This document shows, in pieces, positions 13,503-24,360 of a DNA stretch of 64,000 bases. Location of the stretch: assembly GCA_963790475.1 (NCBI GenBank), contig CAWBOS010000010.1, positions 1,472,001 through 1,536,000 of the forward strand, given 5' to 3'. The first letter of the stretch is position 1. Each line of letters begins with the position of its first letter. Source of the DNA: an uncultured delta proteobacterium (lineage in GTDB: Bacteria; Desulfobacterota; RBG-13-43-22). A program made the position numbers and the translations under genes. The notes beneath the pieces were generated by a model. The model worked only from the letters and a program-made list of their open reading frames with translations, searched no databases and had not been told where the DNA came from.

Positions 13503-14648
13503 ATGAAAAAGACGGATGAGGAACGTTCAGTAAACCGGAGAGATTTACTGAAGATCGGGGTGGCCGGGGCGGCGACCCTGGGTCTTACGGGCGTAGGAAA
13601 TCTCTTCGGGGCCGAACCGGCCGCTACGCTTGCCTTTCGCACGCTGGGCCGAACCGGGCTAAAGGTCACCAGCCTCAGCTTCGGGGCCATGCTCACGCCG
13701 GAGTCCGAGGTGATAAGAGCCGGTCTCGATATGGGCATCAACTATGTGGATACGGCCCGGCGGTATCTGAACGGAAGAAGCGAAGAGGTTGTCTCCAGGG
13801 CCCTGAAGGGAATACGCGACAAAGTAGTCGTGGCCACGAAAACCCAGCCGGGCTCAAACACCAGGGAGGCCATCATGAAGGACGTGGAGACCAGCCTGGT
13901 GCATCTCCAGACCGACCATATCGACGTGATCCAACTCCACAGTCTTCAAAGTCCCCAACGGGCCTTCATCCCCGAGGTACGAGAGGCTTACGTCAGACTC
14001 AGAGAACAGGGGAAAGTCCGTTTCTTCGGCGTTACCACCCATACCAACCAGGCCGAGGTCATCGACGGGGTGGTGAACGACCCGGAGAAGTTTTTCGATA
14101 CCGTCCTGGTGGACTATAATTTCAAGTCGGACCCATCCGTAAAAGCGGCCATCGCCAGGGCCAAGGCGGCGGGAATCGGCGTGATCGCCATGAAAGTTCA
14201 AACAGGCCATTATAAGACGGACGTACCCGGAGACGCGGCCATCCACCAGGCGGCTTTGAAGTGGGTGCTTGACGACACCAACGTCGCTACGGCCATCGCC
14301 GGGATGAAAACCCTGGAGCACATCAAGGAACTGATGCCGGTTATGGGGACGAAGGTTACCGGCGCCGATGAGCGCATCCTGGCCAGATACGGAAAGGCCA
14401 TCGATTCTTACTACTGCCGGCGTTGCGGGCAGTGCCAGAACACCTGCCCCCAAGGGGTAGATATAAGCTCGGTGAACCGGGCACTCATGTATGCCGAGGG
14501 CTATAAGGAATTCGAACTTGCCAAGGCCACCTTCGATGAGGTATCCGGGGCCGCTCTATGTTCGACCTGCCCTGAATGTGTTGCCCGGTGCGTGAACGGT
14601 TTGAACATCGCCGAAAAGATGCGTCAGGCCGGGAGCCTATTGGCATGA
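13503..14648 (+). CDS. Aldo/keto reductase with C-terminal 4Fe-4S domain and Tat-like signal
   Basis: RRDLLK; RTLGRTGLKV, DTARRY..G.SE, ATK, IDVIQLH; CRRCGQC..CP. Confidence 0.88.
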   Translation: MKKTDEERSVNRRDLLKIGVAGAATLGLTGVGNLFGAEPAATLAFRTLGRTGLKVTSLSFGAMLTPESEVIRAGLDMGINYVDTARRYLNGRSEEVVSRALKGIRDKVVVATKTQPGSNTREAIMKDVETSLVHLQTDHIDVIQLHSLQSPQRAFIPEVREAYVRLREQGKVRFFGVTTHTNQAEVIDGVVNDPEKFFDTVLVDYNFKSDPSVKAAIARAKAAGIGVIAMKVQTGHYKTDVPGDAAIHQAALKWVLDDTNVATAIAGMKTLEHIKELMPVMGTKVTGADERILARYGKAIDSYYCRRCGQCQNTCPQGVDISSVNRALMYAEGYKEFELAKATFDEVSGAALCSTCPECVARCVNGLNIAEKMRQAGSLLA

Positions 14649-15571
14649 CCCGTTATGTTCTAGTCTCCATTCTTTGCACGGCGGTCGCGCTGTCTGCCTT
14701 CTCTCCGCCGTCAGCGGCTGCCCAGAAGCTCGAGGGTTTCCTCCCGGCGAGTTGTGTTCCCGGTTGGGCTATGGAGGGCCAGGTGGCGGCTTATACCCCG
14801 GAGAACCTTTACCGGTATATCGATGGGGAAGCCGAGATCTATTTGCCCTACGGCTTCAAGAAGGCAGTGACCGTGAGATACGTAAAAACCGATACTCCCA
14901 CAGCCGGCCCCCAAGATAAGGGGATGGTAGTCAATATCTTCGAGATGGGGTCGCTGCTGGACGCCTTTGGCATCTATGCGAACTACCGTAGTTCAACGCT
15001 GCCGCAATTGAAGGTGGGCGCGGAAGGTTTTCTCGATGAAACAGAACTGATGTTCTATCGGGACCGTTACTTCGTTCAGGTCGAGTCCTCGGGGTCGCTC
15101 ACCCAGGAAGCGGGTCTGTTTCAATCCTGCGCCGAAACCGTCTCCGGAAACCTTCCCCAAGGGGGGGAAAAGCCCCGGGAAATCGGGCTTCTCAACGTGT
15201 CCGGCGCCGTTGCCCTCACCGAAAAATATTATCCCCGGGGGCTGCTCGGCCACGGCTTCTTCGGAAGGGGTCTCACCGTGGAGGTGACGATCAAGGGGGA
15301 GCCGGCCAAGGCCCTGGTCATACTGGCCGGGTCAGAGGAGGCGGCCGGGCGGATCTTTGACGAATACAGGAAATATCTCGAGGAGGCCAAGGTTATACCC
15401 CAAATCTCCGGCGATAAAAAAGGGACCTCTCTCCGGGTGATCGATCCCCTTTACAAGGGTACGGTTTTGCACCAGTCGGGTTCGTTTGTGGTGGGCGTCG
15501 TGGGCCTCAGGGAACCCCATGAAGGGGATGGCATCGTCTCTCAACTCTTGGAGCGGCTGCCCGGCAGGTAG
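14645..15571 (+). CDS. Exported hypothetical protein (DUF6599-like)
   Basis: Signal peptide; NLYRYIDGEAEIY..YGF, IFEMGS..DAFGIY; ATGA overlap with the AKR gene. Confidence 0.7.
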   Translation: MTRYVLVSILCTAVALSAFSPPSAAAQKLEGFLPASCVPGWAMEGQVAAYTPENLYRYIDGEAEIYLPYGFKKAVTVRYVKTDTPTAGPQDKGMVVNIFEMGSLLDAFGIYANYRSSTLPQLKVGAEGFLDETELMFYRDRYFVQVESSGSLTQEAGLFQSCAETVSGNLPQGGEKPREIGLLNVSGAVALTEKYYPRGLLGHGFFGRGLTVEVTIKGEPAKALVILAGSEEAAGRIFDEYRKYLEEAKVIPQISGDKKGTSLRVIDPLYKGTVLHQSGSFVVGVVGLREPHEGDGIVSQLLERLPGR

Positions 15572-15582
15572 GCCTGGCCGAA

Positions 15583-16653
15583 TTATGATCCGCAACGGGA
15601 CCAGGAAACACGAATAACGGTCCCTTTCCCAATTCCGGATTCAAGATCAAAAGAGCCCGAAGAAAGTTGGGCTCTTTCTTTCATGGTGGAAAGACCCAAG
15701 CCTCTTCTGACCCTATCCTGTTCAAACCCTTGCCCGTTATCCTCAATCGTCAATTCTATTCTACCATTTCTTTCTTGAAGAGACAGGCCTACCAGATTGG
15801 CCTGGCTATGTTTGGCGATATTATTCAGGGCTTCCTGACAGACCCTATAGATCGCCGTTTTTAGGAAATCGGTTAACTCCCTTTCCGACAAGTCAATCTG
15901 TTTTTCCAAACGGATGTGCGAATAGGTTCTTTGGTACTCGCGGCAGAACCAGTTGATGGCCGGCACGATTCCCAGGTCATCCAAAAGAGAAGGGCGTAAA
16001 TCAGACATGATCCTGCGGGTTTCTTCGATGACGGATCGAACTCGGTCCAGGAGGTCTTTTAATCCCGCCTGGGTGTTTTCGTCCTGCTCCGTCCGGCCCA
16101 GGATTTTCTCAATACTGAATACGATGGCCCCCAAAGATCCGGCAACGCTGTCGTGAAGCTCCCCGGCAATTCTTTTTCTTTCCTTCTCCTGGGCGTTCAA
16201 AAGTTCTGATGAGAGATATCTGAGTTGTCTTTCTGATTCCTTCAACTGCTCTTCGGCCTGCTGATGCTCCTCCTTTTCTCTTAATTCCTGCAAAGCCCGG
16301 TTCATGGCCGGCACCAGTTTGGAAAGATTATCCTTGAGGATATAGTCGGTTGCTCCATTCTTAAGGGTTTCGATCGCCAGACCTTCCCCCATTTTTCCTG
16401 TAATAAAAATAAAGGGTAGTTCCGGGAATTTTTCCTGTGCAATTTTGAGGGCGGAGATGCCGTCGAAAGCGGGGAGAGAATAGTCGGCAAAGATCAGTTC
16501 AAAATCTTTCTGCGCAAGGGCATCGAGGAAAGCCGCCTGCGTATCAACCCGGACGATGTCGCAGGCCACCCCTTCCGAGATCAGCATTTCCCTTATCAGT
16601 TCCGCGTCTCTCAAATCATCTTCGAGATGGAGTATTCGCAATGATCCTTTCAT
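15583..16653 (-). CDS. Hybrid REC + HisKA_3 histidine kinase
   Basis: ILHLEDD..DYSLP..FITG..K receiver; ERKRIAGELHD; QEALNNIAKHS, DNGQGF, GLGL. Confidence 0.9.
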   Translation of the reverse strand: MKGSLRILHLEDDLRDAELIREMLISEGVACDIVRVDTQAAFLDALAQKDFELIFADYSLPAFDGISALKIAQEKFPELPFIFITGKMGEGLAIETLKNGATDYILKDNLSKLVPAMNRALQELREKEEHQQAEEQLKESERQLRYLSSELLNAQEKERKRIAGELHDSVAGSLGAIVFSIEKILGRTEQDENTQAGLKDLLDRVRSVIEETRRIMSDLRPSLLDDLGIVPAINWFCREYQRTYSHIRLEKQIDLSERELTDFLKTAIYRVCQEALNNIAKHSQANLVGLSLQERNGRIELTIEDNGQGFEQDRVRRGLGLSTMKERAQLSSGSFDLESGIGKGTVIRVSWSRCGS

Positions 16654-16751: not shown

Positions 16752-17213
16752 TTACGCCCTGCCCTTTCCCACGCTCCCCGGCGGCGGTTCATTGATCATT
16801 CCCCAGAATATACCGAGTCCTTTAACGGCGTTAATGAATTCATGGAAATCAACGGGTTTCACCACATAGGCATTAACCCCCAACTCATAGCATCTTCCCA
16901 AGTCTTCTTCCTGACGGGAGGAGGTCAGGACGATCACCGGAATTGTCTTTAATTCTTCATCCGCCTTTATCCGGGCCAGCACTTCCAACCCGCTGACCTT
17001 GGGAAGTTTCAGATCGAGCAAAATGGCCGCCGGATTGCCATCAATAAATGTTTCGAAGTTGCCGCTGCGGGATAGATAGGCCAGGGCTTCTTCACCGTCT
17101 CGGGCCACAACCACTTCGTTGACCAGATGGTATTCAGAGAGCGCTTCAAGAGTGAGTTCCACATCTTTAGGATCGTCTTCAACGAGTAAAATGCGTTTCA
17201 TTTCTTTCATCAT
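16752..17213 (-). CDS. Single-domain response regulator (Rcp1-like)
   Basis: ILLVEDD, LLDLKLPKVSGLEVL, LTSS, NAYVVKP, FWGMINEPPP. Confidence 0.92.
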   Translation of the reverse strand: MMKEMKRILLVEDDPKDVELTLEALSEYHLVNEVVVARDGEEALAYLSRSGNFETFIDGNPAAILLDLKLPKVSGLEVLARIKADEELKTIPVIVLTSSRQEEDLGRCYELGVNAYVVKPVDFHEFINAVKGLGIFWGMINEPPPGSVGKGRA

Positions 17214-17229
17214 TTTAAACTTAAACTCC

Positions 17230-18192
17230 TTATTTTGGAAGTGAAAATGAAAAAGTGGCCCCATGGTCTATTTTACCCTCAGCCCAGGTTTGGCCTCCAT
17301 GGCGATGAATGAGGCGCTGGACATTGGCCAGTCCGATGCCCGTTCCTTCAAAGTCCTCCTGACGGTGAAGGCGCTGGAACACGCCAAAAAGTTTGTCTTG
17401 ATATTTCGGATCGAACCCGACCCCGTTGTCCCGAACAAAAAATATAAATTCGTCCTTCTCGGGGATACACCCAATTTCGATTTCGGCTTCCGGCCTCGGC
17501 CGGGTAAACTTCACGGCATTGGAAATAAGATTGACGAACACCAGACGAAGCATTGAGCTGTCACAATAGACTTCCGGCAACTCCCCGACCTTCCAGGCAA
17601 TGTCTCTCTCTTCCGTTTCTTCTTGTAATTCCTTAAGAACTCCCTTTACCAGATCTCCTAAAGGGACCCTGTTCTTCTTCACTTCAGATCGGCCGATACG
17701 TGAAAAAGCTAAAAGGTCATCGATCAAAACCCCCATCTGCTTCGCCGATTCGGAAATGGTATCCAGATAATGGAGAGTAGTCTGATCAAGAACGGAGGAG
17801 GCCTTTTTTTGTAACATCATAGCAAATCCGGTGATATGCCGAAGCGGCGCGCGAAGATCATGAGATATAGAGTATGAAAAACCCTCCAGCTCTTTATTCG
17901 CGGCCTCAAGTTGCGCCGTCCGTTCCAGGAGCTCACGGTTGGCAACTTCCGCTTTGGATCGCTCCACATCAAAGTCTTCCAGGAGGTTCAACATGGCCCG
18001 CTGCGTCTCCTCAAACTGGGTCTTTTCCCCGGCAAAGTCTTCCAGGATGTTCACGGTGGCCCGCTGCATCTCCTCCAGACGGGCCTTCTCTTCCGCGAAG
18101 TCTTCCAGGATGTTGTGCATCGCCTTGGTGTAGTCTTTGATGTCCATGATCGCCGAGGCTACCGGCAATAGCTGAAGGGATTGAGCGATCAT
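17230..18192 (-). CDS. Cytoplasmic HisKA histidine kinase with three N-terminal 21-aa repeats and no sensor domain
   Basis: FSYSISHDLRAPLR, NLISNAVKF, DNGVGF, GTGIGL; 63-bp repeat period (aagtcttccagga at 17972, 18035, 18098). Confidence 0.92.
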   Translation of the reverse strand: MIAQSLQLLPVASAIMDIKDYTKAMHNILEDFAEEKARLEEMQRATVNILEDFAGEKTQFEETQRAMLNLLEDFDVERSKAEVANRELLERTAQLEAANKELEGFSYSISHDLRAPLRHITGFAMMLQKKASSVLDQTTLHYLDTISESAKQMGVLIDDLLAFSRIGRSEVKKNRVPLGDLVKGVLKELQEETEERDIAWKVGELPEVYCDSSMLRLVFVNLISNAVKFTRPRPEAEIEIGCIPEKDEFIFFVRDNGVGFDPKYQDKLFGVFQRLHRQEDFEGTGIGLANVQRLIHRHGGQTWAEGKIDHGATFSFSLPK

Positions 18193-20639
18193 GGTTCGGC
18201 CCTCTCCATCGGCGTCCTCCTCTGCAGCGAATCATTTTCCTTCCGCAGCTCCTCAATCTCCTTCTTCAGGTCGATCATCTTGAGCTCCCGTCCGACCGTC
18301 AGCCTTTGAAACCTCTCCAGTTCCGCCAGCCGCTCCAGCTCACGCGTTCTCTGCTCTTCCCGGGCCCTCTGCTCAGCGAGCTTGGTCTCGGCCTCCTTCT
18401 GGGCCGTAACGTCACGAGCGGCGGCAAAGACGCCGAGAACATTGCCTTGCATGTCCCGGTACACCGAGGCGTTGTAAAGCACATTCGTGAGTCGTCCCTC
18501 CTTATGCCGGATGGTCAGGGGATAGTCGGTAACGAACCCCTTGGAAAAAACCTGCTCGTATCCCCGGCGCGCATTCTCGGGTTCCGTGAAGTAATCTGAA
18601 AAATCCGTCCCGATAAGCCGGTCTCGAGGAATACCGGTTGCTTTCACGGTCGCTTCATTGACGTCGGTGATCTTCCCTTCCGGGCTGATGGTGACCAGGG
18701 GATCAAGGCTCGCCTCAACCAGGGTTCTGGCATACTGGGAGGCTTGACGGATCTGTTCTTCGGCCTGTTTCTTTTCCGAAATGTCATTGCTCATCAGGAG
18801 ATATCCGATGGGGCGGCCCGAACCATCGATACGGCGGGTGACCACAACGCTGGCTATAAAACGGGAGCCGTCTTTCCGGACGCGCTCGAACTCGCCTTCC
18901 GACAGACCCTTTTCATAGGCAACCTTCAGCATTTTTTCCACGACCCCGGACTGAATATCTTCCGGCGTGTGAAGGATGCTCGACTCTTTGCCGATAATCT
19001 CTTCGGCCGCATAGCCGTAATTCCGCCGGGCCCCCTCGTTCCAGGAAAGGATGCGGTAGTTCAGATCTTTTCCGATGATAGAGTACTTGGTTGAGCTCTC
19101 CAGAATATTATCCAGAAAGTTTTTCGTCTCTGAGAACTCGCGCATGACGCGTTTCGATTCCGTTACGTCCCTGGCGGCGGCAAACACCCCCAGAACGTTA
19201 CCGCGCACGTCCTTATAGACCGAGGCGTTATAGAGGACGTCAACCAGAATCCCATCCCGGTGCCGGATGGTCAGAGGGTAATCGGTGACAAAACCCTTCT
19301 CGAAGACCTGCCGGTATCCTTCCCGGGCCTTCTCCGGCTCGGTAAAGTAGTCCGAGAAGTCCGTCCCGACCAGCCGGTCGCGTGGGACACCCGTCACTTT
19401 CACGGTCGCCTCATTGACGTCGGTGATCTTCCCTTCCGGGCTGATGGTCACCAGGGGGTCCAGGCTGGCCTCGATCAGGCTCCTGGCATATTCCGCAGCC
19501 TGCCGCTGGGCGGTGACGTCACGGGCCGCCGCAAAAACCCCCAGGACGTTGCCGGTGACGTCCTTGTAAACCGAGGCGTTATAGAGGACCTCGACCAATT
19601 TCCCATCCCGGTGCCGGATGGTCAGAGGGTAATCGGTGACAAAACCCTTCTCGAAGACCTGCTGGTATCCTTCCCGGGCCTTCTCCGGCTCGGTAAAGTA
19701 GTCCGAGAAGTCCATTCCCACCAGCCTGTCGCGCGGAATACCCGTCACTTTCACGGTCGCCTCATTGACGTCGGTGATCTTTCCTTCCGGACTGATGGTC
19801 ACCAGGGGGTCCAGGCTGGCCTCAACCAGACTCCTGGCATACTCCGCTGCCTGCCGCTGGGCCATAATGTCCCGGGCGGCGGCAAAGACGCCGAGGACAT
19901 GGCCTTGCATGTCCCGGTACACCGAGGCGTTATAGAGGACGTCCGTGAGTCGTCCGTCCTTGTGCCGGATGGTCAGCGGATAGTCGGTGACAAATCCTCT
20001 GGAGAAAACCTGCCGGTAGCCGTCACGCGCACTCTCCGGGTCGGTGAAGTAGTCCGAGAAGTCCGTTCCGATGAGCTTGTCGCGGGGAATACCCGTCACT
20101 TTCACGGTCGCCTCATTGACGTCGGTGATCTTTCCTTCCGGACTGATCGTGACCAGGGGGTCCAGGCTGGCCTCGATCAGGCTCCTGGCGTATTTCGAGG
20201 TCGCCTGCAACTTCTCATCGATGCGTTTACGTTCTGAAATATCCCGGGCGATGGACGAAGCGCCGATGAGCCTCCCTGAGGTATCGTGGATAGGCGAGAC
20301 GGTCAGGGAAACATGGATCAGCGTGCCGTCCTTACGTTTGCGAAGCGTCTCGTAGTGATCAACCCGCTCGCCCTGGCGGATTTTGGCCAGGATTTCTTCC
20401 ATTTCCATCGGTCGGTCCGGGGCGAGAAGGATAGTGACCGGCTGGCCGATAATTTCCTTCGCGGTATACCCGTACATTATTTCCGCAGCGCGGTTCCAAC
20501 TGGTAATAATCCCTTCCAGGGTTTTGCCGAAGACGGCATCATCGGAGGAATCCACGATGGAGGCCAGGAGTGCCGTCCGTCCCTCCTCTAACGGTGACAT
20601 GGCTCTGTCTTTTTTCTTCTTCTTACCGTTAACTTCCAT
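18189..20639 (-). CDS. Six-PAS sensor protein without output domain, ending in a coiled coil
   Basis: PAS1, three tandem 117-aa PAS repeats, PAS5, a fourth repeat copy, then ...FQRLTVGRELKMIDLKKEI...; GGGAGG RBS; ATGA overlap with the kinase. Confidence 0.9.
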   Translation of the reverse strand: MEVNGKKKKKDRAMSPLEEGRTALLASIVDSSDDAVFGKTLEGIITSWNRAAEIMYGYTAKEIIGQPVTILLAPDRPMEMEEILAKIRQGERVDHYETLRKRKDGTLIHVSLTVSPIHDTSGRLIGASSIARDISERKRIDEKLQATSKYARSLIEASLDPLVTISPEGKITDVNEATVKVTGIPRDKLIGTDFSDYFTDPESARDGYRQVFSRGFVTDYPLTIRHKDGRLTDVLYNASVYRDMQGHVLGVFAAARDIMAQRQAAEYARSLVEASLDPLVTISPEGKITDVNEATVKVTGIPRDRLVGMDFSDYFTEPEKAREGYQQVFEKGFVTDYPLTIRHRDGKLVEVLYNASVYKDVTGNVLGVFAAARDVTAQRQAAEYARSLIEASLDPLVTISPEGKITDVNEATVKVTGVPRDRLVGTDFSDYFTEPEKAREGYRQVFEKGFVTDYPLTIRHRDGILVDVLYNASVYKDVRGNVLGVFAAARDVTESKRVMREFSETKNFLDNILESSTKYSIIGKDLNYRILSWNEGARRNYGYAAEEIIGKESSILHTPEDIQSGVVEKMLKVAYEKGLSEGEFERVRKDGSRFIASVVVTRRIDGSGRPIGYLLMSNDISEKKQAEEQIRQASQYARTLVEASLDPLVTISPEGKITDVNEATVKATGIPRDRLIGTDFSDYFTEPENARRGYEQVFSKGFVTDYPLTIRHKEGRLTNVLYNASVYRDMQGNVLGVFAAARDVTAQKEAETKLAEQRAREEQRTRELERLAELERFQRLTVGRELKMIDLKKEIEELRKENDSLQRRTPMERAEP
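19165..20215 (-). repeat. Three tandem 351-bp PAS-encoding repeats (fourth copy ~18410-18745)
   Basis: Equivalent gcaaa positions at 19180, 19531, 19882; near-identical peptide YARSL.EASLDPLVTISPEGKITDVNEAT... Confidence 0.9.
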
Positions 20640-20682
20640 CGTATTTCCCTCCCTTGTCAGGATTTTTTCCGCCCAGAAATTC

Positions 20683-22752
20683 TCAGTCCTTTTTTTGACT
20701 TTGGATAGATCCGCTCCATATTGAAAGGCCGCCCCACTCCGCCCGAATAATCGTCCCCTTTCCCTCGGCCGATTCAAGGTCGAAAAATCCGCCCGATAGC
20801 TGAGCCCGTTCTCTCATGGTTGAAAGCCCCAGTCCCTTCCTGACCGTCTTGGGGTCAAACCCTTCCCCGTTATCCTTTATGATCAAGGTTATTTTTTCGG
20901 CCTTCTTTTGAAGAGAAATATTCACTAGGGAGGCCTGGCTGTATTTGGAGATATTATTCATGGCCTCCTGGGAAATTCGAAAAATCGGCGTTCTCAGAGG
21001 ATCGGGCACTTCCGATTCTAAAATTCCGATATGACTTTCCACGGAAATATGAGGATAAGTCTTTTGGTATTCCCGGCAGAACCAGCTCATAGCGGCCACG
21101 ATCCCCAGGTCATCCAGGACGGCCGGCCGCAGGTCGACCATGATCCGGCGAACTTCAGTAATGATCTCGGAAACTTTAGAGGCGAGGTCCTGCAGGGATT
21201 CAGTACTGCTCTCCCCTCGTTTCGTCTCCGCCGTTATTTTCTCAATTCCGATTTTCATCGCCGCCATGGAGGCTAAGGTGCTGTCATGCAGTTCCCCGGC
21301 AATCCTTTTCCTCTCTTCCTCCTGAATGGTCAGGGATTGGGAGGCAAAATATCGAACCTGGTCATGCGCCTTTTTTAAGTTTTCCTCGGCCTTCTTCCGC
21401 TCGGTGATATCAATATCCATCTCCAGGATCAGGGGCGATCCATCGGCATCGATAAAGGGAAAATCATAGGCATCAAGGATACTGCCGTCCGGAGTGGTGA
21501 CCTCCCAATGATGGGGTCTACCGGTTTCCAGAACTTGGTATGATTCACAGAAATCGCAGGGTCGGCTAAGTCCGAAACGATATTCATAGCAGCGCCGGCC
21601 GTCTGATTCTGCGAATTTCTCCCGAGAAGACCGGTTGGCAAAAGCTACGCCATAGTCGGGGGTCAACAGGCAGATCATAGCCGGCAGCGTTTCCAGAACG
21701 TCATAAAGGCGCCGGCGTTCGGCCTCGACTGCTTCGACCACCTGCCGGCGTGCCTCGCTCTGGCGCAATAACTCTTCGGTTCGCCGGCGCTCGGTGATGT
21801 CGCGGAAGACGAGCACAAGGCCGGTAATATTTCCCTCCCGGTCTTTTATGGGCGCGCCGCTGTCGTCAATCGGGACTTCTGTTCCGTCTTTCCTCACCAG
21901 GAGCGCGTTGTAGTCCGGACCGGCGATTATCCCTTCCCGGAGCACCTTGCAAACGGGGCCCTCGGCCCGGCAGCGGGTTTCCTGGTTGATGATGTTAAAG
22001 ACCTCCTCCACCGGCTTTTCCGCCGCTTGGCCAAGAGTCCAACCGGTAAGCCTTTCGGCCACGGCATTCATAAAGGTAACCCGGCCCTCAACATCGGTGG
22101 CGATGACCGCATCGCCGACACTGGACAAGATGGTGGCCCAGCGCTGTTCACTTTCCCGGAGGGCCGCTTCCGCCTGCAGACGCACGGCGATCTCTTCTTC
22201 GAGGCTTTTGTTGGAGACCTGCAGCTCGGCGGTGCGCTCCTTTACCAAATCCTCCAGGTGGACCTGGTAGGTGCGGAGCTGCCTTTCCTTGGATATCCTG
22301 TCCAGGGTGGTTCCGGCGATCCCGGTCAGGGCTAAGTAAAGGTTAAGTAACTCAGGTCGAACGGGAGTGGAAGACTTGTGGCCGATGAGGAGCACCGTCG
22401 TCGTCCGATTCGACTCGGGTAAGGGCAAAAAGAGGACCCCATAGGATTCGGAACCCAAGACCGTTTCGGTGGCCAGGAATCCGGTCTCCAGCACGTCATG
22501 GATGATCCCTTTGACCTTCTCCGACAAGATCCCCCCGGGCAGGTCTTCACCGCCCATGACCCGATTCTCAAGGGAGATCTTCCCCCCAGAGTCCAGCCGG
22601 GCAAAGGCGACCCACTCCGCCTTGAAATAACTGACGATGAGACGCCCAAACTCCTCGAGGATGTTTTGTTGAGCGGTGAGCCGGACGATATATTGCGCGG
22701 CCTTTATAAAACTTTCTACATATGGTCCTTGATAGGAAGGCTCTTCCGACAT
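20683..22752 (-). CDS. GAF-like + PAS + PAS HisKA_3 histidine kinase
   Basis: N-terminal GAF-like region, VGDAVIATD..N..AE PAS, EERKRIAGELHD, DNGEGF, GLGL. Confidence 0.88.
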   Translation of the reverse strand: MSEEPSYQGPYVESFIKAAQYIVRLTAQQNILEEFGRLIVSYFKAEWVAFARLDSGGKISLENRVMGGEDLPGGILSEKVKGIIHDVLETGFLATETVLGSESYGVLFLPLPESNRTTTVLLIGHKSSTPVRPELLNLYLALTGIAGTTLDRISKERQLRTYQVHLEDLVKERTAELQVSNKSLEEEIAVRLQAEAALRESEQRWATILSSVGDAVIATDVEGRVTFMNAVAERLTGWTLGQAAEKPVEEVFNIINQETRCRAEGPVCKVLREGIIAGPDYNALLVRKDGTEVPIDDSGAPIKDREGNITGLVLVFRDITERRRTEELLRQSEARRQVVEAVEAERRRLYDVLETLPAMICLLTPDYGVAFANRSSREKFAESDGRRCYEYRFGLSRPCDFCESYQVLETGRPHHWEVTTPDGSILDAYDFPFIDADGSPLILEMDIDITERKKAEENLKKAHDQVRYFASQSLTIQEEERKRIAGELHDSTLASMAAMKIGIEKITAETKRGESSTESLQDLASKVSEIITEVRRIMVDLRPAVLDDLGIVAAMSWFCREYQKTYPHISVESHIGILESEVPDPLRTPIFRISQEAMNNISKYSQASLVNISLQKKAEKITLIIKDNGEGFDPKTVRKGLGLSTMRERAQLSGGFFDLESAEGKGTIIRAEWGGLSIWSGSIQSQKKD

Positions 22753-22755
22753 CGC

Positions 22756-24360
22756 TTAATTCCCGGCCATGGGTTGAAGAAAAAGACTCTCCAGGAATAG
22801 ATCCTCAAATTCGGGAACCTGAGAAAGATTGATGATTTTCGATTTCTCTCTTAAGCGCTGAAGACCATCGCCCTTTCCGTTTGACAAAAGGAGAAACTCA
22901 CATCCTCTCAGGGCGGCGTTACCACAGAGTTCAACACGTTCAGGGGAGATGAAAGGAAGCAAGCCGATTTCCTGGGCATTCCGGATATTCAAGTAATTGC
23001 CAAAACTGCCGCAAATAGAAATGCGTTGCAGTGACTCGGCACTCATCCGGGCGGATTTTAGCAAGAACCGCACTCCGGCGCCGATGGCGGCCTTGGCTCG
23101 TTGAAACAGGTCTATATCCCCGCCATCCAAAAAGAGACCCGGATTGTCCACCGACAAGACGAATCTCCTTTCCGGCAGTTCAGCAGTGATTCGTCCTTTT
23201 TTATCAACTTTTCCTGTTTTTGTCAAATAGGCGATGAGATCGACCAGACCGGAGCCGCAAAAGCCCTGGGCATTTTCATCGCCGATGACCTGGGCAGCCA
23301 GTCCCATCCCTTCGTTTTGTTCGATCTTATAAATCGCACCAGGTCCGGCCGGCATCCCGCATTTCATTCCGCTTCCCTCAAAAGCCGGTCCTCCGGCGGC
23401 CGAGGTGACCCACAAGCAGGTTCCATCCCATAGAGCGATCTCGGAATTGGTGCCGAAGTCAATCAAGAGACCGGCCGCGGTTTCGGTCAGACGGGTACTG
23501 AGCACACCGGCCAGAAGATCAGAACCAATAAAACCGGCCAGGGGTTGATGAAGATTGACCGAGACTTCAGCCCTTAAATTTACTGTCTCAAACCAGTTTT
23601 TTGTACTTTCGGGACGACAATCGATGGACCTCGTCCAGTATCGGGGTTGAGAAAGCAGGTCCAGGCCCTTTTCAGCCAGCAAAGCCGTCATGGCGGTATT
23701 GCCGACGATCGCTATGGTCCTTATCTTCCAGGGATCGTACCCTTCGCTTGAACACACCTCCAGAAGTCCTTCAGCCAGGCAGTCTTTTACGGTTTGGCTT
23801 ATTTCCCGGGCGGATTCCTTTGACTGGCTGGCCGCCTGCAGCCGGGTCATGACGTCGGAGCCATAACGCGACTGCCAATTAAGCCCCGAGACTGCCGACA
23901 GACGCTGGTTTCTGGAAATGTCCCACAAGGACAGGCTTACGGTCGTGGTTCCCAGGTCGATGGCCAGGCCATAAGCGGGATCATCGGGTTCCGCAGCCTT
24001 TTCCAATGATCGGTGGAGAGAAGTCCAATCCGGAATTTCACCCGGGTTCAGTTTTCGCCAGTTGGGCCGGGGGGCCGGTCTCAAGATCCTGATCCGGAGG
24101 TCATCGGCGCCGATCACCTGGCAGGCCAATCGAACTCCGTCCTGAAGCTCCTTTTCGGAAAGAAGAAGGGTCTCGTTTTTGGTAGGCCCTGGCACCCTGC
24201 CGGCCAAAACTTGAATGCGGCACAAACCGCATGCCCCTGATCCCCGGCAACCGGTTCGAACCCGCAGGTCAGTGGTGTCGAGCACTTCCCGCAATGACTT
24301 CCCTGGTGTAAAAGCGATCAAACGGTCTTTGGGGTTACTTAAAACCCAAAGAAGGGGCAT
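22756..24360 (-). CDS. ASKHA-type reductive activator of corrinoid proteins (RACo/DUF4445) with N-terminal 2Fe-2S domain
   Basis: CRGSGACGLC..RLAC; IDLGTTT, DFGTNSEI, SAAGGPAFEG, GFCGSGL. Confidence 0.88.
   Translation of the reverse strand: MPLLWVLSNPKDRLIAFTPGKSLREVLDTTDLRVRTGCRGSGACGLCRIQVLAGRVPGPTKNETLLLSEKELQDGVRLACQVIGADDLRIRILRPAPRPNWRKLNPGEIPDWTSLHRSLEKAAEPDDPAYGLAIDLGTTTVSLSLWDISRNQRLSAVSGLNWQSRYGSDVMTRLQAASQSKESAREISQTVKDCLAEGLLEVCSSEGYDPWKIRTIAIVGNTAMTALLAEKGLDLLSQPRYWTRSIDCRPESTKNWFETVNLRAEVSVNLHQPLAGFIGSDLLAGVLSTRLTETAAGLLIDFGTNSEIALWDGTCLWVTSAAGGPAFEGSGMKCGMPAGPGAIYKIEQNEGMGLAAQVIGDENAQGFCGSGLVDLIAYLTKTGKVDKKGRITAELPERRFVLSVDNPGLFLDGGDIDLFQRAKAAIGAGVRFLLKSARMSAESLQRISICGSFGNYLNIRNAQEIGLLPFISPERVELCGNAALRGCEFLLLSNGKGDGLQRLREKSKIINLSQVPEFEDLFLESLFLQPMAGN

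Follow-up and report, generated by a model that had tools for sequence, protein, structure and literature searches.

A multi-PAS sensor and a sensorless histidine kinase from overlapping genes may be joined by paired helical motifs

Introduction

How does a sensor that has no output domain pass on its signal, and how does a kinase that has no input domain receive one? The question is raised by two overlapping genes in the genome of an uncultured delta proteobacterium (GenBank assembly GCA_963790475.1), on contig CAWBOS010000010.1 between positions 1,472,001 and 1,536,000. This whole stretch of 64,000 nucleotides is called the window here, and coordinates are counted from its first nucleotide unless stated otherwise. 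The first gene encodes a protein of six PAS domains with a conserved C-terminal helix, the tail, and the second a kinase that begins with an array of helical repeats, the head. Together with a third gene they form a conserved, horizontally mobile cassette, which consists of a multi-PAS sensor, a translationally coupled sensorless kinase and a single-domain receiver. That the sensor and the kinase work as a pair in some form is very likely. Direct docking of the tail on the head is the explanation that we favour, with a probability of roughly 0.6, and within it we infer the contact, the direction of the signal and the REC target.

The sensor and its tail helix

The sensor gene lies at 18189–20639 on the minus strand and encodes 816 amino acids. 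Scans with Pfam and NCBIfam (TIGR00229) gave six PAS stretches in the translation, and neither collection found a HisKA, HATPase or other output domain in it. The assignment to the PAS fold rests on the matches to Pfam and TIGR00229 and on the AlphaFold2 model, where the last PAS domain has a mean predicted local distance difference test score (pLDDT) of 93. This domain ends in a D-V/I-T motif and then continues as a long helix. In the model of residues 623–816 the helix covers sensor residues 745–808 (18216–18407, minus strand; model residues 123–186), directly after the last PAS strand, and it appears as one helix of 64 residues with a mean pLDDT of 93.3, unbroken at the conserved Gly.

The most conserved part of the tail is a near-invariant core at sensor residues 767–798 (18246–18341, minus strand), with the pattern ELERF...GRELKM...LKKEIEEL. 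An alignment of 61 sequences showed conservation of at least 90% across phyla in 26 of 28 consecutive columns of the core, and all faces of the helix are included. The hidden Markov model (HMM) of the tail matched the sensor with an E value of 6.5e-28 in a search of its own genome. The first-pass annotation of this DNA, made from the sequence by itself, was right about a sensor of 816 residues with six PAS domains and no output, but it placed the tail string at the very end of the protein; the string starts at residue 773, and 15 residues lie beyond it.

It was also observed that a DNA repeat of 351 nucleotides, coding for PAS sequence, is present four times in the sensor gene (18406–20163), with 76–91% DNA identity when 300 nucleotides per copy are compared. 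These repeats are a likely substrate for growth or shrinkage of the PAS array.

The kinase and its repeat head

The kinase gene, at 17230–18192 on the minus strand, encodes 320 amino acids that consist of the repeat head, a HisKA domain and a HATPase_c domain, and the translation and the Pfam and NCBIfam scans gave no sensor domain. HisKA (DHp) occupies residues 104–167 (Pfam, E 1.5e-13) and HATPase_c residues 211–319 (Pfam, E 2.8e-23), which places the protein among the histidine kinases, and residues 1–100 are covered by no Pfam family, even at loose thresholds. The head lies within this part, at residues 21–83 (17944–18132, minus strand), and is made up of three repeats of 21 amino acids with Asn27, Asn48 and Asn69 at equivalent places. 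An HMM of the repeat unit found three domains in it, with E values from 6e-8 to 8e-7; the kinase open reading frame (ORF) as a whole gave an E value of 1e-25, and there was no other match below E 5 in the genome of 6.34 Mb. The phospho-acceptor is His111 (codon at 17860–17862, minus strand), which stands at the H-box position in an invariant alignment column. The repeats, the positions of the Asn residues and the phospho-His are all as had been read from the sequence at first sight.

AlphaFold2 modelled residues 1–175 with a single unbroken helix at residues 18–130 (17803–18141, minus strand; mean pLDDT 90.6), so that the head continues without a break into the first helix of DHp. A reading of the 21-residue units as leucine-rich repeats was ruled out because of their helical composition and the single helix in the model.

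Conservation of the split

The sensor and the kinase genes overlap by the four nucleotides ATGA (18189–18192, minus strand), in which the stop codon TGA of the sensor and the start codon ATG of the kinase are combined. When the contigs of two DNA sequencing runs were mapped to 17200–20700, the bin with this junction (18136–18252) had no coverage. With the last 60 residues of the sensor as a query, 1061 proteins of 448–1428 amino acids were obtained at E≤0.01. Among the 120 matches listed there was no kinase domain, and in all 120 the tail motif lay within the last 75 residues. A scan of one genome per species gave 80 loci, and the strict tail motif was found in 75 of them. The tail-bearing ORF stops 20–41 residues past the motif in 75 of the 80.

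The ORF that follows the tail gene is a HisKA kinase in 55 of the 75 loci, and a head match is present in 53 of those 55. Among the remaining loci ten more have the repeats, nine of them on HisKA_2-type kinases and one on an ORF that is cut by the contig end, and in one further locus a lone unit precedes an HD-type domain. Counted by the repeats themselves, the downstream ORF has at least one NILED unit in 67 of the 75 loci, and at least two units in the 21-residue register in 61. Of these 67 loci, 40 have an NTGA that combines the start and the stop codon, three have an overlap of one nucleotide, and in 18 the genes are separated by a gap of 1–30 nucleotides.

A protein in which tail and head are fused was found neither in the 75 loci, nor among 121 head proteins, nor among 143 representatives of clusters at 50% identity. 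One cluster representative, P0326, has its tail region read in another frame, and looks like a miscalled gene. The absence of fused forms from these three sets bears out the earlier proposal that the split is not a simple frameshift.

The head as a repeat module

The register of the repeats is strictly kept. In the related loci the spacing of 21 residues is exact in 144 of 150 gaps between units, and the last Asn and the phospho-His are a multiple of seven residues apart in 45 of 49 loci; the remaining four are at +4, a stutter. The same distance is a multiple of seven in 95 of 100 head proteins from the database, and the HisKA_2 kinases with a head have a fixed phase of their own. The claim that the repeats share the heptad register of the phospho-His thus holds for the relatives as well. 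If the hydrophobic residues F74, A81, L88, L95, L102 and I109 below the repeats are taken as the d positions of the heptad, our own reading of the sequence would place Asn and His alike at 'f', which faces outward, and in each unit the positions d, e, g, a and d around this one would be hydrophobic. For 52 proteins of one spacing class, conservation within the repeats reaches 3.95 bits at 'c' as compared to 4.01 at 'a' and 3.06 at 'd', and the Asn at 'f' is invariant. Below the repeats, in the linker of the same proteins, conservation is lowest at 'f'.

Searching for the head gave 972 proteins of 176–560 amino acids at E≤1e-3. Among the 120 listed most are bare HisKA and HATPase proteins, five are of the HisKA_2/HWE type, and five match PAS families. 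The head profile is also matched by 488 cluster representatives. Among 121 head proteins the median position of the first repeat Asn is 26, and the number of repeat copies ranges from one to nine, with a single adjacent tail gene. In five longer proteins (P0003–P0007) the array is found at the extreme N-terminus, before the PAS domains and a long way from DHp; PAS domains and a kinase come next in four of them, and GAF, PAS and HD domains in one. Since the array can stand so far from DHp, the head must be more than a DHp linker. It is a modular element, as had been suggested, and is carried by outputs of the HisKA, HisKA_2/HWE and HD types. The family PF26724 is given for two of the 120 listed head kinases, P0135 and P0139, in precomputed Pfam lists; our own Pfam scan did not return it.

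Distribution and probable horizontal movement

The 75 related loci with the tail span more than 15 phyla, and the phyla represented among the 80 loci of the scan include Proteobacteria, Bacillota, Nitrospirota, Actinomycetota, Acidobacteriota, Planctomycetota, Chloroflexota, Bacteroidota and Bdellovibrionota. We also searched a sample of 301 genomes from the phylum of the window, where a tail of at least 85 bits and a head of at least 80 bits were counted as strong. Strong tails occur only in four genomes (G000, which is that of the window, G124, G222 and G241), and strong heads in exactly the same four, adjacent to the tails and on the same strand. Ten further genomes have weak heads. Six of these have a weak tail 0.3–1.6 kb upstream, on the same contig and strand, and the other four belong to one genus, are 61–79% complete and have the two motifs on different contigs. 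In the whole sample, tail-like motifs are found in 50 of the 301 genomes as compared to 14 for head-like motifs. Genomic co-occurrence of the two motifs, which had been put forward as a check on the pairing, is thus found both in the adjacency at 67 of 75 loci and in the coincidence of strong matches in four of four genomes among the 301. Consecutive gene products that occur together in this way are what a docking pair should show.

The head was absent from all eight genomes of the same genus that were examined, and in a sample centred on Pseudomonadota a strong head was found in the centre genome only. A tree of 47 kinase cores mixes the phyla almost randomly, with 27 changes of phylum label against a mean of 29.7 after shuffling (14 of 200 shuffles were as low), and well-supported clades join different phyla, for instance Planctomycetota and Nitrospirota. 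The last PAS domain together with the tail is mostly 62–85% identical to the window copy across phyla (60 rows, two of them at 30% and 36%), and the start of the kinase 32–54%. Taken together, these results point to horizontal movement of the cassette, with the caveat that most of the related records are metagenome bins. The assembly that holds the window has a listed contamination of 9.68%. This contamination, and the absence of a canonical head from the eight genomes of the genus, imply that the cassette was either recently acquired or lies on a mis-binned stretch, although its contig has a length of 2.0 Mb.

Proposed docking and its alternatives

The sensor lacks an output and the kinase an input, the two genes are translationally coupled, their helices are conserved together and on all faces, and the head is found on different outputs. 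For these reasons we favour a model in which the tail would pack on the stalk of the kinase. The tail helices of a sensor dimer would pack on the repeat stalk of a kinase dimer and form a non-covalent helical bundle, in place of the covalent coiled coil that links PAS to DHp in ordinary PAS kinases. Changes that a signal causes in the PAS array could then be passed through the stalk to DHp, much as through an in-line coiled-coil linker, and the kinase would phosphorylate the adjacent REC protein. A profile-profile comparison showed no relation between tail and head.

Several observations weigh against docking. The pairwise distances of the sensor ends and of the kinase starts correlate weakly (Mantel r 0.22; 45 of 2000 permutations were as high), and joint inheritance of the cassette could explain both adjacency and co-occurrence without any direct contact of the two helices. 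Two cassettes of one genome (L026 and L055) have identical tail cores, which implies that docking, if it is real, gives no partner specificity. Eight of the 75 tail genes have no adjoining head gene; five of their genomes were searched, and all have a head-like match elsewhere, which is strong in two. In some divergent relatives, helices like the head and the tail are also found within one protein, where they stand between domains, and therefore both may be general connector helices.

It is extremely unlikely that the split is an artefact or a recoding event, be it a frameshift or pseudogenisation in a single PAS kinase, a fault of the assembly, or programmed −1 frameshifting with a fused product. 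The kinase frame is indeed −1 relative to the sensor at the overlap, and the tail region of P0326 is read through in the other frame. But a fused form is absent from every set examined, so the relatives are not mostly single ORFs with a split confined to this locus, as a pseudogenised kinase would have it. The junction also differs among loci (NTGA, overlap of one nucleotide, gaps of 1–30 nucleotides, other frames), the C-terminal extension of the sensor beyond its tail and the leader of the kinase vary in length and sequence, and no slippery heptamer was seen by eye at the junction in the window. It is very unlikely, although less so, that the two proteins are independent, with the PAS protein signalling elsewhere and the neighbourhood kept because the genes travel together. 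The eight tail genes without an adjacent head gene would fit such independence, as would the higher frequency of tail-like than of head-like motifs (50 and 14 of 301 genomes). The overlap of start and stop codons in 43 of 67 loci, the coincidence of strong tails and heads in all four genomes, and the division into a sensor without output and a kinase without input would not.

A functional pair without docking is possible, though we regard it as unlikely. Here the tail would be the dimerisation coiled coil of the sensor and the head a long signalling helix under some other control, such as contact of PAS domains with DHp or CA, or the action of the REC protein. Co-occurrence is no proof of contact where a cassette is inherited as a whole, and putative in-line HAMP kinases (L085 and L090) also have one head-like unit, which stands 28 residues ahead of the His. 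In a few proteins a PAS domain runs straight into the head (P0321, P0364, P0369, L033 and L035), and there the head looks like an ordinary linker. In LvrB, a 21-residue helix above DHp governs the CA domains with no external partner (PMC13269768). On the other hand, near-invariance on all faces of a 28-residue tail is not expected of a plain homodimeric coiled coil, the head is also found at the N-terminus far from DHp and on an HD-type output, and L033 and L035 keep the upstream tail gene in spite of their in-line PAS domains.

If the tail does dock on the head, the pair would be a natural, portable and non-covalent connector between sensor and output, with about a thousand gene pairs in public data from many phyla. 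Many output-less genes annotated 'PAS domain S-box protein' would then be paired with input-less kinases annotated 'ATP-binding protein'. Docking would also offer a clean system for studying how a coiled-coil signal passes across a broken chain, and, for synthetic biology, a plug and socket whose length changes in exact steps of three heptads.

The proposal of several sensors per kinase

The three repeats had been proposed as three sockets, through which one kinase could integrate several interchangeable sensors. This idea fared poorly, because canonical pairs occur at about 1:1. In the genome of the window the HMM search found one canonical tail and one canonical head, and the database totals within the length ranges searched, 1061 tails and 972 heads, are also close to 1:1. 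Arrays of anything from one to nine repeats, moreover, stand next to just one tail gene. Some loci do favour several sensors. One genome has an extra unlinked tail gene (L063) besides a complete pair (L057), the identical tail cores of L026 and L055 belong to two cassettes in one genome, and among divergent relatives two or three tandem tail genes stand upstream of a kinase with one head-like unit.

It is conceivable, but doubtful, that the NILED array is a multivalent rail in which each unit of the kinase dimer binds a pair of universal tail helices. An array of n repeats might then, on the same doubtful premise, carry up to n sensor dimers, and any sensor with a tail might fit any output with a head, be it a kinase or an HD-type enzyme. 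The sensors that could be plugged in would, just as tentatively, include those of unlinked genes and of tandem arrays of two or three tail genes. Such a rail would be a standardised and horizontally exchangeable plug-and-socket bus for bacterial signalling.

Relation to known systems

Neither motif is covered by Pfam, NCBIfam or the PDB, in agreement with the first-pass annotation, which knew of no named family for the pair. In a profile search of the PDB nothing was significant, the best E value being 0.009 for the head (a Lamassu protein) and 0.29 for the tail. Pfam at loose thresholds gave only sub-threshold coiled-coil noise on head and tail, and a protein atlas only unnamed clusters. The pair was described in no title or abstract found among open-access papers and preprints, where searches with the motif strings gave off-topic matches only. 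The split and the pairing of motifs are thus widespread and apparently undescribed.

In-line PAS kinases of the FixL/YF1 type have a DIT motif and a heptad-periodic coiled-coil linker from the PAS domain to DHp. The window pair resembles them in that the D-V/I-T end of the PAS domain continues as a long helix and that the helix above DHp is in phase with the phospho-His. It differs in that the helix is split over two polypeptides from overlapping genes, each half with a conserved motif of its own, and in that the kinase half is made of exact 21-residue repeats in one to nine copies. In polyketide synthases, docking domains let a C-terminal helix pair with the N-terminal coiled coil of the protein encoded next. 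The likeness to these would be one of working only, since the sequences are unrelated and the biology differs.

The S-helix is a conserved coiled coil of about 40 residues within a single chain, situated between sensory and catalytic domains and marked by an ERT signature (Anantharaman, Balaji and Aravind 2006, PMC1592074). Its g, a, d and e positions are stated to be 4–5 times more conserved than b, c and f (PMC1592074). The head is likewise a conserved coiled coil directly upstream of DHp, but the consensus of the head has no ERT and that of the tail has ERF, and outward c and f rank with the most conserved positions of the repeats. By the criteria of the family itself the motifs are therefore no S-helix. 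The array of 21-residue repeats and the putative partner helix on another protein also set the head apart.

A closer parallel in length is the alpha-S helix of LvrB from Leptospira, which has 21 residues, or three heptads, above DHp and a coiled-coil state that controls the catalytic domains (PMC13269768). LvrB has an in-line REC domain as its input (PMC13269768), whereas the window kinase has its input on a separate protein and a helix that is lengthened by repeats. The best NCBIfam match to the kinase core is LvrA (E 2e-74 over residues 69–320), although well below the cut-off of the family, and the best structural match to the kinase model is GacS (Foldseek, E 8e-4). The RetS-GacS complexes (PDB 7n0e and 7z8n) give a precedent for control of DHp in trans; RetS, however, is itself kinase-like and binds DHp, whereas the window sensor consists of PAS domains and a dedicated tail, and a repeat head is lacking in RetS-GacS. 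Split kinases such as CheA3/CheA4 have the ATP-binding and the phosphotransfer parts on separate proteins that form a complex (Amin, Porter and Soyer 2013, PMC3591291). The likeness is that functions are divided between two proteins, which would form a complex here too. The difference is that HisKA and HATPase are both on the 320-residue kinase and that it is the sensor which is the separate part, and hence the window pair is not a split kinase of this kind.

Divergent relatives

More distant versions of the motifs were also found. In a set of ten stretches the divergent tails are C-terminal in 20 of 21 matches and internal in one. The genome of the window itself has such a locus outside the window (contig C10, 215232–218224), where a PAS-only ORF of 437 amino acids carries a related C-terminal tail (E 3e-6 to the tail HMM). 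It overlaps an ORF of 567 amino acids with a PAS domain, one head-like unit and an H-box, and two REC-only genes follow.

Other genomes of the phylum have two or three divergent-tail genes in tandem, namely L081 (4440–8596, minus strand), L082 (3447–8170, minus), L083 (7756–10938, plus), L084 (992–3253, plus) and L085 (1–4757, plus). Downstream of these tandem genes there is a kinase or an HD-type protein that carries one head-like unit. The tail genes and the kinase are separated in L085 and L090 by a gene of about 185 amino acids, and the head-like unit there comes after a putative HAMP-like segment. In L047, on a contig with masked or unknown residues, ELERFQK, the first half of the tail motif, appears as an in-line linker directly before another PAS domain.

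The receiver gene and the neighbourhood

The third gene of the cassette encodes a REC-only response regulator and lies directly downstream of the kinase (16752–17264, minus strand). Pfam placed Response_reg at residues 25–148, and the true start may be a later ATG. In 46 of 66 related loci this place is taken by a close relative of the REC protein.

Two further kinase genes on the same strand border the cassette, a PAS-HisKA_3 kinase of 689 amino acids (20683–22752, minus) and a REC-HisKA_3-HATPase protein of 356 amino acids (15583–16653, minus), which suggests a larger multi-kinase operon. Near these signalling genes there are also a RACo-type protein with Fer2, RACo middle and C-terminal domains (22756–24360, minus) and a DUF6599 protein (14576–15571, plus).

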